From Actinomycetota bacterium (GTDB lineage Bacteria; Actinomycetota; Actinomycetes; S36-B12): a stretch of 64,000 nt of DNA. Of the stretch, positions 6,869 through 33,419 are shown in pieces. Position numbers and translations under genes: made by a program. The notes beneath the pieces were generated by a model, which saw only the letters and a program-made list of their open reading frames with translations, ran no database searches and was not told where the DNA came from. Location: positions 55,893 through 119,892 of the forward strand of contig JAFMCH010000002.1 of assembly GCA_017857875.1 (NCBI GenBank). Reading direction: 5' to 3'. Position 1 is the stretch's first letter. Each line of letters begins with the position of its first letter.

Positions 6869-6939
6869 TCCCGGCTCGTCTAATGGCAGGACAAGAGACT
6901 TTGAATCTCTGAATGGGGGTTCGACTCCCTCGCCGGGAG
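6869..6939 (+). tRNA. tRNA-Gln (anticodon UUG)
   Basis: Hand fold: acceptor TCCCGGC/GCCGGGA, D arm GTCT-AATGGCA-GGAC, anticodon arm AGAGA-CTTTGAA-TCTCT, T arm GGGGG-TTCGACT-CCCTC, discriminator G. No CCA is encoded. Confidence 0.85.
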
Positions 6940-6967
6940 CTGAGGTCGAGGGGTAGGGTGCGACCCG

Positions 6968-30252: not shown

Positions 30253-30774
30253 ATGTCCAACGGTGATTCGTATGCGATTACGGTTGTGGGTCATGACCGC
30301 CCCGGCATAATCGCTGACGTAACTGGGGCGATTGCTGATCTTGGCGGCAACCTCGAAGACTCCTCGATGACACTCCTGCGCGGCCACTTTGCTTGGACAC
30401 TCGTGGTGACGGGTAGTGACCCGGTTGAGATTGAGCACCGCCTAGAGTCCCTGCGTCACAATGGTTTGCGAATTTCCGTGATTGCACTACCTGAGGCCCC
30501 GAGTCATGGTGATGCGGGAGCGGTGTACGTCATGAGCGTTCATGGCGGCGACCGGCCGGGGATCGTGTCTGCGTTGACAAAGGTGATCGCTGAGGCAGGA
30601 GGCAATATCGTCGACCTGACGACGCGGCTGTCCGGCGATCTTTATGTTTTGGTGGCCGAGGTCGTTCTTCCGGCCGACACAGATATTGCCGTGGTGGAGC
30701 GAAACCTCAGTGAGGCGGCGACAGCCGTGGGCGTAGGAGTCACCCTGCGCCCGGAGGACATCGATCTTCTGTGA
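30253..30774 (+). CDS. tandem ACT-domain protein (GcvR-like)
   Basis: Two ACT-type segments are present (ITVVGHDRPGIIADVTGAIADLGGNL and MSVHGGDRPGIVSALTKVIAEAGGNI). I chose the ATG at 30253. Confidence 0.7.
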   Translation: MSNGDSYAITVVGHDRPGIIADVTGAIADLGGNLEDSSMTLLRGHFAWTLVVTGSDPVEIEHRLESLRHNGLRISVIALPEAPSHGDAGAVYVMSVHGGDRPGIVSALTKVIAEAGGNIVDLTTRLSGDLYVLVAEVVLPADTDIAVVERNLSEAATAVGVGVTLRPEDIDLL

Positions 30775-31313
30775 CGGATCTACTGCCGGACCTTCCTAAG
30801 TTGCATGTAGGTCGTCAACGTGACGTCCTGCGCGCACCACACGCGGCATTGGCCACTACATGCATCGAGGTTGATCCGCACAGCGATGACACGGTGGCGC
30901 TGGCCGCTGACCTGCTGGCCACAATGGATGTATCGCCAGGCTGCGTGGGGCTCGCTGCGAATCAAATTGGCGTGTCGGCGCGCGTGTTCTGCCTCGATGT
31001 CTCTGCTCACCCGAAAGCGCGCACCTGTCACGGACGATTCGTGCTCGTTAATCCAGTGATTGAGGTGGCCACGCGCAAGGAACGGGCACGGGAGGGATGC
31101 ATGTCAGTGCCGGATTTCACCGGCGATGTCCGCCGTGCATCGAGGCTGGAGATCCGTGGATATCTACCCGGCACCGCCGAACCGGTCTTGATCAAGACCG
31201 ATGCCTTCGAGGCCCGCGCAATCCAACATGAAGTCGACCACCTCGATGGCCTGTTGTTCGTCGACCGGGTGGTCGATGCTCGCGCCCTGCATCCCCGCCA
31301 GACCTACCTGTAG
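30771..31313 (+). CDS. def: peptide deformylase
   Basis: The three PDF motifs GLAANQIG, EGCMSVP and QHEVDHLDG are present. Confidence 0.9.
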   Translation: MTDLLPDLPKLHVGRQRDVLRAPHAALATTCIEVDPHSDDTVALAADLLATMDVSPGCVGLAANQIGVSARVFCLDVSAHPKARTCHGRFVLVNPVIEVATRKERAREGCMSVPDFTGDVRRASRLEIRGYLPGTAEPVLIKTDAFEARAIQHEVDHLDGLLFVDRVVDARALHPRQTYL

Positions 31314-31355
31314 CGGCCCGTTCGGACCGCCCCTAGGCCAACGCAAGCGAGCTTG

Positions 31356-31428
31356 TGCCCCCGGAGGGAGTCGAACCCTCACTGTGCCGGGTTTAAGCCG
31401 GGTGTCTCTGCCATTGGACTACGGGGGC
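31356..31428 (-). tRNA. 73-nt class-I tRNA; anticodon reads UAA by hand fold (identity unresolved)
   Basis: Minus-strand fold: GCCCCCG / TA / GTCC-AATGGCAG-AGAC / A / CCCGG-CTTAAAC-CCGGC / ACAGT / GAGGG-TTCGACT-CCCTC / CGGGGGC / A. The acceptor stem has 7/7 pairs and the T stem 5/5. U8, A14, GG in the D loop, U33 and A37 are all present. Confidence 0.75.
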
Positions 31429-31499
31429 GTAGGCAAGGCCTGGCGAACCATTGTGGGTTACGGTAGAGGAAGACCCGATCTTCTCTGAGGAGACCACCC

Positions 31500-32378
31500 A
31501 TGCAGACCACTAATCCGATTCTGTCCCGCATCGATCGCGAAGCCACCGCTCGTGCCCAGACGGGCGGCGCCGGCTTTGCTTATGAAGAGGGCCGCTCCGC
31601 CGTTGCTGCGGCCCAAGCACCGGCCCCCGGCCAGGCGGGCGCAACCCCACGTGTTCCGATGTTTGGCGGGGGGCTCCCGGGCACTTCCGCGCCGGTCACG
31701 TTTGCCGATGTCATGGCCAAAAGTGGCGTGCTGTTCGTTGTGGTCGTGCTCAGCGCGGTCGTCGGCTGGCAACTCGCCAACATCGACGGCCTGGGCACCA
31801 TCGTCGTTTTCGTTGCTATTTTTGCCACGTTGGGTCTGGGTTTGACCAATGCGTTCAAGAAGGTCGTCAGCCCGCCTCTGGTCCTGGCCTACGCACTGGT
31901 TTCTGGCATCATGCTCGGCGCGGTCAGCAACTGGTACAACACCCTCGCGCTGTCGGTGAACTACGAAGGGCTCGTCCTTCAAGCCGTGCTCGCCACCATG
32001 ACCACCTTCGGGGTCATGCTCCTGCTGTACGGCACCGGCATCGTGAAGGTCAACAACCGCTTCATGAAGGTCATGATTGGCGCGATGGCGGCGTACTTTG
32101 TCATCGCCATGGCATCGTTCGTCGGAGCGATGTTCGGCGTTGGCGGTGGCTGGGGCTTCTATGGAGTCGGCACCCTGGGTCTCCTCCTCGCCCTGGCCGG
32201 CGTACTGCTGGCCGCGTTCAGCCTGATGCTCGATTTTGAGGCAATCAAGCAGGGCATCGCGATGGGCCTGCCTGAGCGTGAGTCCTGGCGATTGTCCTTT
32301 GGCCTCCTGGTCACGATCGTCTGGCTATACCTGGAGATTCTTCGTTTCTTGACCCTGCTAGCAGCGGGGCGCGAGTAA
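31500..32378 (+). CDS. Bax inhibitor-1/YccA-family integral membrane protein
   Basis: N-terminal MQTTNPILSR and a Pro/Ala-rich linker are followed by about 7 hydrophobic spans. The layout is as in actinobacterial BI-1-like proteins (family assignment from memory). Confidence 0.65.
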   Translation: MQTTNPILSRIDREATARAQTGGAGFAYEEGRSAVAAAQAPAPGQAGATPRVPMFGGGLPGTSAPVTFADVMAKSGVLFVVVVLSAVVGWQLANIDGLGTIVVFVAIFATLGLGLTNAFKKVVSPPLVLAYALVSGIMLGAVSNWYNTLALSVNYEGLVLQAVLATMTTFGVMLLLYGTGIVKVNNRFMKVMIGAMAAYFVIAMASFVGAMFGVGGGWGFYGVGTLGLLLALAGVLLAAFSLMLDFEAIKQGIAMGLPERESWRLSFGLLVTIVWLYLEILRFLTLLAAGRE

Positions 32379-32399: not shown

Positions 32400-32723
32400 A
32401 TGAACGCTCCGATCGACGACTCGTTTCACCATGAACTACATCGGGTCGTTGACCGGCTGCGTTCGATGCCGGTCTCGCAATTGGAGCGCCCCTGGCACGG
32501 TTATGCATCGCGCGCTGAGGGTGTGCGTGCCCTGGCGCAATGGTGCGTTGAGCGCACGCTGTTGCCGGCAAGTCTCGGGCAGCCGTCGGTTCCAGACGTT
32601 GGACCCCTGGCGGTGGGCGATCAACTCTCCGTGACCTGCATGGATCTGTATCGTGCGCCGCGGTCGCCAGAAGTTCTCGCTGAAGCAGAACGTCGGCTAA
32701 GGGAACTTCGGATTACGCTGTAG
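32400..32723 (+). CDS. hypothetical protein
   Basis: This is a 107-aa ORF with no motif recognised. Its 3' end overlaps the convergent MBL-fold gene by 27 nt. Confidence 0.4.
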   Translation: MNAPIDDSFHHELHRVVDRLRSMPVSQLERPWHGYASRAEGVRALAQWCVERTLLPASLGQPSVPDVGPLAVGDQLSVTCMDLYRAPRSPEVLAEAERRLRELRITL

Positions 32724-33419
32724 AAACCCTCGCACCGCTTCGCGTGCCTGCGAGGAGATTTCGGGTCCGTGAGTGAAAGCGGCGGTGGTGTAGTTGAACT
32801 CGGCCAACACGTGCGCGGTGTGCGCGTTTTGTCGATACGACGTGCACATGGCGGCGATCGGCCAGGTGATACGTGAGCGCATGTTCCAGATTGAATCCCC
32901 CGTAATGAGCACGCCGCTGTCACGATGAAGGAGCGATATGTGTCCGGGAGTGTGTCCGGGGGTGTGGATCACTTCAAGTTCGCTGCCGATGTCTATCACT
33001 TCACCGTCGGTCAACTCGCGGGCCACCTTGACCGGCTCAAACCCACCACCTGGCAGGCGATTAACGAGTGCGCCGAGCCGCGTTGTCGCATCTGCAGGGG
33101 CTGATGATCCGGCGCGAATGAACGGTGCGTCGTCGCGATGCACGTCAATACCCATGGCAGCCGAATCTCTCACGAGAATGGCTGCCCCACCAGCGTGATC
33201 AGCGTGAGCGTGGGTCAGCAGGATACGTGTGACGTCCTGCGGTGATTTCCCGATCGCGGCGAGACCGCGAACAATCGTGCCGGGTGCTCGCTTCAACCCA
33301 CAATCAATCAGCGTGACGCTGTCGTCGTCGTCAATAATCGCGAAACTGTTGATGAAGTTGCCGAGGGTCGGTATGCGATAGATCTGACGACCGAGGGGAA
33401 CTATTGGCGTTGCGCTCAC
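32697..33419 (-). CDS. MBL-fold metallo-hydrolase
   Basis: The metallo-beta-lactamase motif LLTHAHADHAGG is present, with a later HTPGHTPGH. Confidence 0.85.
   Translation of the reverse strand: MSATPIVPLGRQIYRIPTLGNFINSFAIIDDDDSVTLIDCGLKRAPGTIVRGLAAIGKSPQDVTRILLTHAHADHAGGAAILVRDSAAMGIDVHRDDAPFIRAGSSAPADATTRLGALVNRLPGGGFEPVKVARELTDGEVIDIGSELEVIHTPGHTPGHISLLHRDSGVLITGDSIWNMRSRITWPIAAMCTSYRQNAHTAHVLAEFNYTTAAFTHGPEISSQAREAVRGFLQRNPKFP

Follow-up and report, generated by a model that had tools for sequence, protein, structure and literature searches.

A type I tRNA-Leu(UAA) gene at a conserved chromosomal position in Actinomycetota

The window, by which I mean the whole 64-kb stretch of DNA analysed here, carries a 73-nt tRNA gene that very probably encodes a functional tRNA-Leu(UAA) of type I, the kind with a short variable loop: a decoder of UUA that would, by analogy with Streptomyces, be charged by LeuRS. 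The preliminary description of this DNA treated a class I tRNA with a UAA anticodon as odd, but such a tRNA is routine and positionally conserved in this lineage and in many actinobacterial families. The short tRNA-Leu(UAA) is ordinary for its lineage and belongs to a known kind, the bacterial type I tRNA-Leu, which textbooks and the 2019 Streptomyces paper (PMC6614811) treat as rare. What is new is modest: the UAA isoacceptor, beside the CAA isoacceptor, is also type I, and it is found widely across Actinomycetota at a conserved position. The gene itself is an ordinary housekeeping tRNA, and its proper annotation is tRNA-Leu(UAA).

The gene and its fold

ARAGORN, run on the 64-kb window, reports a tRNA-Leu(taa) on the minus strand at 31355-31428, and Rfam gives a full-length match to RF00005 at 31356-31428 on the same strand (55.5 bits, the gathering score being 29; E = 3e-9). 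The fold first proposed for the minus-strand tRNA is reproduced by both programs, and both adopt the register in which the anticodon had been read as UAA; no software picked another. The match is to a complete cloverleaf scoring above the RF00005 gathering score, in which U8, A14, G18G19, U33 and the T-loop are all present, the acceptor stem is paired at 7 of 7 positions and the T stem at 5 of 5 (Table 1). The gene does not encode CCA. In the earlier reading C27-C43 was the sole flaw of the molecule, but Rfam marks two stem pairs as non-Watson-Crick, C27-C43 and the D-stem pair C13-A22. ARAGORN finds two tRNAs in the window, this one and a tRNA-Gln(ttg) at 6869-6940 on the plus strand.

The minimum-free-energy fold of the single sequence is likewise a cloverleaf, with a z-score of only -1.42; folding stability alone is no evidence for a tRNA gene. 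Position 38 of the tRNA is C, and the A36-A37-A38 context, which is the one used by MiaA, is absent. A scan of positions 31150-31650 for sigma-70 promoters and intrinsic terminators gave no match, and it is uninformative because actinobacterial promoters fit the consensus used poorly. An ochre-suppressor-like UUA anticodon on the plus strand was considered and rejected, as the T-loop, the D-loop GG and the Rfam match all belong to the minus strand.

Table 1. Coordinates of the tRNA gene, its parts and its flanking genes in the window
Feature	Position	Strand	Basis
Type I (short variable loop) tRNA-Leu(UAA), 73 nt	31356..31428	-	ARAGORN, Rfam RF00005 and synteny
Discriminator A73	31356..31356	-	Sequence and Rfam
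Variable loop A44 C45 A46 G47 U48, 5 nt	31381..31385	-	Rfam alignment
Anticodon loop CUUAAAC, 7 nt	31391-31397	-	Sequence; invariant in 7 syntenic orthologues
Anticodon U34 A35 A36	31393..31395	-	Sequence and ARAGORN/Rfam register
D arm of tRNA-Leu architecture: stem GUCC/AGAC, C13-A22 mismatch, loop AAUGGCAG (A14, A15, G18, G19, A20a, G21)	31404..31419	-	Rfam alignment, leuZ alignment
Peptide deformylase gene (def), convergent with the tRNA	30771..31313	+	Pfam PF01327, synteny in relatives
BaxI_1 (Bax inhibitor-1/YccA-like) membrane protein gene, divergent from the tRNA	31500..32378	+	Pfam PF12811; adjoins the tRNA in all syntenic loci

A conserved chromosomal position

The tRNA-Leu(UAA) gene lies between def and BaxI_1, antisense to both, and Pfam matches place UDG, ACT, MBL-fold and CBS-PALP genes near it; the G+C content of the window is about 59-60%. 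The BaxI protein has its homologues in MAGs of aquatic Actinomycetota, some of them labelled Nanopelagicales. I used this protein to fetch the loci of relatives (their BaxI proteins are 57-100% identical to that of the window), so that the retrieval was independent of the tRNA sequence. A minus-strand tRNA(taa) of 74-76 nt occupies the same place in all 18 of the 18 loci that cover the region upstream of the BaxI gene, and the possibility, raised earlier, that orthologues carry a more conventional anticodon is not borne out in any of them. When the syntenic loci are aligned, the tRNA is nearly invariant and its flanks are unalignable; the loop CUUAAAC is identical in every sequence, and one acceptor pair shows a compensatory change, from C4-G69 to U4-A69. 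Since the anticodon loop is invariant in orthologues that were anchored by a protein, a sequencing variant or a drifted copy is excluded.

The MBL-fold hydrolase gene of the neighbourhood (window 32697-33419, minus strand) is also kept in synteny, and its orthologues match PF23023 (Anti-Pycsar_Apyc1). By this match the encoded protein looks like a cellular relative of a phage family of cyclic-nucleotide-degrading enzymes.

Distribution across genomes

Further relatives were collected from a species-representative genome collection with the pattern GGCTNAAACC..CAG..GGTTCGA..CC, set to class I spacing and with position 34 left free. There were at least 120 matches, mostly from Actinomycetota, and among those listed 85 carry a UAA and 35 a CAA anticodon. 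Positions 30-33, 35-40, 45-47, 52-58 and 61-62 were imposed by the pattern, and invariance there is evidence only in the protein-anchored loci. ARAGORN calls a short tRNA-Leu for all matches listed except three, of which two lie at the end of a locus and one, L201 (Solirubrobacterales), is a chance match without a tRNA and was rejected.

Hosts among the matches listed include Cellulomonas, Aeromicrobium, Microbacterium, Cutibacterium, Propionibacteriaceae, Promicromonospora, Demequina and Isoptericola, as well as Nanopelagicales, Frankiaceae and Coriobacteriia, and the CAA form is found in Kitasatospora and Sphaerisporangium; outside Actinomycetota, the matches listed come from Dormiibacterota (UAA) and from one Chloroflexia MAG (CAA). 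Homologues of BaxI_1, def, UDG, ACT or CBS-PALP lie within 8 kb of at least 36 UAA loci, and of no CAA locus, among the matches listed. As the UAA loci share a neighbourhood and the CAA loci do not, the UAA gene is an orthologue that has long kept its position, and the CAA gene is a separate paralogue.

Two genomes deserve separate mention. A Cellulomonadaceae MAG (JBQGOU01) holds a type I UAA gene (L163) and a type I CAA gene (L196) together, and short tRNA-Leu may thus serve the entire UUR box in some Actinomycetota. A MAG labelled Brevundimonas sp. contains a type I tRNA-Leu(CAA) identical to a Cellulomonas-type sequence (L160; JBCECL010000009.1, 2984-3016), and the presence of this contig in a proteobacterial MAG probably reflects contamination during binning or the transfer of a segment.

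A leucine-type body

Across the 69 unique UAA sequences, both partners vary in 13 of the 21 stem pairs, and standard pairs fill 94.5% of cells; by this pattern of covariation, the structure of the tRNA-Leu(UAA) is under selection. Every one of the 85 unique relatives, UAA and CAA types together, has the C13-A22 mismatch and, in its D loop, A14; the D loop of these relatives has the form AAYNGGYAG and the variable loop the form NCAGY. All 69 unique UAA-type sequences have U at position 8, followed by A in 67 and by G in 2, and A73 is present in 67 of the 69. Because C13-A22, the AAYNGGYAG loop and A73 were not imposed by the search pattern, the body of the molecule points to leucine.

The tRNA had also been compared, in its D and T arms, with the tRNA-Gln of the window. 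For the T arm the comparison stands, as this arm is identical in the two molecules, but the D arm of tRNA-Gln is one nucleotide shorter and lacks the 13-22 mismatch, so that the Gln-like impression is superficial. The D arm of the tRNA-Leu(UAA) is Leu-type and its anticodon is invariant in the protein-anchored orthologues, neither of which fits a Gln/Glu-type body with a drifted anticodon. Origins from a tRNA-Phe(GAA) by a G34U change and from a tRNA-Ile(UAU) by a U36A change were likewise considered and rejected, given the Leu-type D arm and the age and conservation of the family.

At the top of the anticodon stem, C27-C43 or C27-U43 (window 31402 and 31386; also in L015 and L018) is seen in 10 of the 69 unique UAA-type sequences, each with the GUCC/AGAC D stem of the group to which the window belongs. 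Elsewhere among the UAA type, positions 27-43 are nearly always G-C, G-U or A-U, and U27-U43 is found in 6 of the 16 CAA-type sequences. That the clade of the window has C27-C43 or C27-U43 where most lineages have a standard pair counts against function.

Meaning and use of TTA codons

The use of TTA codons in the window, for which single examples had been given before, is confirmed in the 58 ORFs: TTA accounts for 81 of 19,162 codons (4.2 per 1000) and occurs in most genes, and TTG stands at 21.8 per 1000. With TTA in ordinary use, a reader of UUA is needed. Leucine makes up 164 of the 255 orthologue residues aligned to TTA codons of the window (0.64) and 0.61-0.72 of those aligned to the other five leucine codons, as against 0.07-0.13 for the TTC, ATC and GTG codons that served as controls for Phe, Ile and Val. 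At some TTA positions the leucine is near-invariant, as at residues 135 (27 of 28) and 302 (24 of 24) of the CBS-PALP protein. In the reverse direction, 18 of 24 TTA codons of relatives align to leucine in the proteins of the window. The aligned residues show no sign of recoding or mis-decoding at TTA, there being no excess of Gln, Glu, Lys or Gly.

An all-against-all codon test on ORFs pointed in the same direction but was noisy, with the TTC control giving leucine as the plurality residue, and the noise probably stems from the inclusion of spurious conserved antisense ORFs. This test was set aside and the conclusion rests on the protein-anchored tests: judged by alignment to orthologues, TTA behaves as a leucine codon in the organism of the window.

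Comparison with known leucine tRNAs

The tRNA-Leu set of Streptomyces coelicolor comprises four members of type II and a single type I member, tRNA-Leu(CAA) or SCOt09 (Fan et al., 2019, NAR 47:6369, PMC6614811), the variable loop of the latter being A44 C45 A46 G47 C48 (PMC6614811). The sole LeuRS of this species leucylates both types, type I at a kcat/Km of 6.25 and type II at one of 14.2 per s per uM (PMC6614811). For charging of the type I tRNA, U8:A14 (an identity element for the S. coelicolor enzyme, ScoLeuRS) and the 5-nt length of the loop matter, and the leucine-specific domain of LeuRS is needed, with L732/G733 in ScoLeuRS (PMC6614811). The Streptomyces type I tRNA-Leu is not a substrate of the E. 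coli LeuRS, nor is human mitochondrial tRNA-Leu(UUR) a substrate of the S. coelicolor enzyme (PMC6614811). According to Pettersson & Kirsebom (2011), as cited in PMC6614811, the type I tRNA-Leu(CAA) of S. coelicolor can replace bldA when its anticodon is changed to UAA. The whole S. coelicolor genome contains 145 TTA codons (PMC6614811).

The tRNA of the window shares with this type I tRNA-Leu(CAA) the 5-nt variable loop (ACAGU against ACAGC), U8:A14, G18G19, A73 and the architecture of the D arm. The two differ at position 34, which is C in S. coelicolor and U in the window, and they are paralogues and not orthologues; the window tRNA is known from its sequence. A CAA tRNA of Kitasatospora (L140) has both the ACAGC loop of the S. 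coelicolor tRNA and the architecture of the window tRNA, and in both L140 and the window tRNA a UUR-family anticodon is set in a CUYAAAC loop. The window tRNA combines the features of a type I tRNA-Leu, namely the 5-nt loop ACAGU, a leucine anticodon (UAA), U8 and A14, with a codon, TTA, that aligns to leucine. The UAA isoacceptor is type II in Streptomyces, whereas in the window it is type I.

When the window tRNA is aligned with E. coli leuZ (type II, UAA), the two differ markedly in one place only, the variable arm, which is cleanly deleted from the window tRNA. The window tRNA is 73 nt long, against 87 nt for leuZ, and is without the 10-12 extra nucleotides of a long variable arm. The two have in common the anticodon, A73, the acceptor start GCCC and the architecture of the D arm, in which leuZ has a G13-A22 mismatch and the loop AAUCGGUAG and the window tRNA has C13-A22. 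A 13-22 mismatch with A22 and a loop of the form AAU(N)GGYAG are shared by the window tRNA with canonical type II tRNA-Leu(UAA), the kind to which leuZ and bldA belong. Of the type II features, then, the Leu-type D arm and A73 are present and the long variable arm (>10 nt) is not. The codon read by bldA is rare and belongs to auxiliary genes, whereas the TTA codons of the window, at the frequency given above, are spread over most of its ORFs and are neither rare nor confined to auxiliary genes.

Type I tRNA-Leu(UUR) of animal mitochondria (summarised in PMC6614811) resembles the window tRNA in its short variable loop, UAA anticodon and A73, but it is organellar, has a relaxed structure and is served by a dedicated mitochondrial LeuRS. 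Short tRNA-Leu genes are also annotated as tRNA-Leu in the GenBank records of phages; they are 73-75 nt long and 75-82% identical to the window tRNA, and examples are the tRNA-Leu(gag) (74 nt) and tRNA-Leu(caa) (75 nt) of Mycobacterium phage Bonray and that of Pseudomonas phage vB_PseuGesM_254. Unlike the window tRNA, these are encoded by phages and have CUN-family anticodons too, and they are known by annotation only. In the limited literature covered, I found no paper on a UAA isoacceptor of type I or on how far it extends through the phylum, and no report of type I tRNA-Leu in Actinobacteria besides PMC6614811; a 2023 review of tRNA identity is without mention of Streptomyces.

Proposed function and alternatives

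By analogy with the Streptomyces experiments, the LeuRS of the organism would charge the window tRNA with leucine and, like bacterial LeuRS in general, would be blind to its anticodon. Recognition would proceed through the Leu-type core (U8:A14, A15/U48, G18G19 and the 13-22 mismatch) and the acceptor end, as in S. coelicolor tRNA-Leu(CAA). The failure of the E. coli LeuRS to charge the Streptomyces type I tRNA-Leu implies that charging depends on a lineage-specific LeuRS. A LeuRS is usually about 800-1000 aa in size, and no ORF of this size was seen in the ORF list of the window, judged by length only. On the ribosome, the charged tRNA would read UUA as leucine and, if U34 is modified as I suppose, probably UUG too, and it may be the main or only reader of UUA in the genome. 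The gene itself is an old one at a conserved chromosomal position in Actinomycetota, and no drifted copy of a tRNA of another isotype.

It is unlikely, though worth weighing, that the window tRNA is a redundant minor leucine isoacceptor, a back-up or condition-specific type I tRNA beside a type II tRNA-Leu(UAA) that is encoded elsewhere and carries the bulk of UUA decoding, like bldA in Streptomyces. Both types of tRNA-Leu are indeed present within one Streptomyces cell (PMC6614811), and the 64 kb of the window hold only 2 of the tRNA genes of its genome. However, the two Streptomyces types differ in anticodon (CAA in type I, UAA in type II) and are not duplicates (PMC6614811), and in the Cellulomonadaceae MAG type I serves for both UAA (L163) and CAA (L196). 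A near-invariant tRNA held at one position across families in which the flanking proteins are 30-70% identical fits an essential decoder.

The preliminary description offered an atypical leucine isoacceptor as one of several options, and the Leu-type D arm, A73 and the alignment of TTA to leucine in orthologues favour it over the others. One of these, now very improbable, was a class I body of Gln, Glu or Lys type (or, one may add, of Gly type) whose anticodon has drifted to UAA, so that a synthetase other than LeuRS would charge it and UUA would be mis-decoded. Its T arm is that of tRNA-Gln, the D loops look alike, and deliberately mistranslating tRNAs are reported in Actinobacteria. But GlnRS, GluRS and LysRS read the anticodon and would reject UAA, an additional nucleotide and a 13-22 mismatch mark the D arm as that of a leucine tRNA, both being absent from tRNA-Gln, and no protein-anchored orthologue departs from the anticodon loop, so that the anticodon, invariant over deep divergence, has not drifted. 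Mis-decoding, for its part, finds no support in the TTA codons themselves, which align to leucine at the rate of the other leucine codons and behave as leucine codons. It is just as improbable that the molecule is a non-decoding tRNA-like RNA that acts off the ribosome, whether as an aminoacyl donor for a non-ribosomal transferase, as a regulatory RNA or as an integration target. A conserved position beside a membrane-protein gene could suggest a local role, and at least 120 viral contigs have similar short tRNAs, some copies of which may be attachment sites. However, the elements used in translation are complete (U33, A37, G18G19, the T-loop TTCGA and acceptor and T stems of 7 and 5 pairs), the anticodon is strictly conserved, which would be needless in a donor tRNA of an anticodon-blind synthetase, and TTA is regularly used and needs a reader. 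Pfam matches in the neighbourhood include no gene for a tRNA-dependent transferase.

With the functional type I tRNA-Leu(UAA) as the preferred reading, a broader proposal can be put forward tentatively, and I regard it as plausible without leaning towards it: that in most Actinomycetota, and in Dormiibacterota, UUA is read by the type I tRNA-Leu(UAA) as the ancestral decoder and usually the sole one, that the type II bldA of Streptomyces is the exception, and that recognition of both tRNA types is a phylum-wide property of LeuRS. Judging by the survey of genomes and phages, Actinomycetota commonly have short tRNA-Leu of the UAA and CAA kinds, which also occur in some neighbouring phyla and in many phages. 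Such a spread bears on tRNA isotype models, on the co-evolution of LeuRS with its tRNAs and on the choice of orthogonal LeuRS/tRNA pairs.

Short leucine tRNAs in viral sequences

Class I tRNAs with the CUYAAAC loop occur in at least 120 IMG/VR viral contigs; among the matches listed, 91 have a CAA and 33 a UAA anticodon. From these sequences, short tRNA-Leu seems common in phages or at the ends of prophages. In phage Bonray (L260; MK112533.1, 31819-32054) the two short genes stand in a tandem of three tRNA-Leu genes, with the anticodons cag (86 nt, type II), gag (74 nt) and caa (75 nt). One viral-contig tRNA sequence recurs 32 times in sample 3300045988 among the matches listed.
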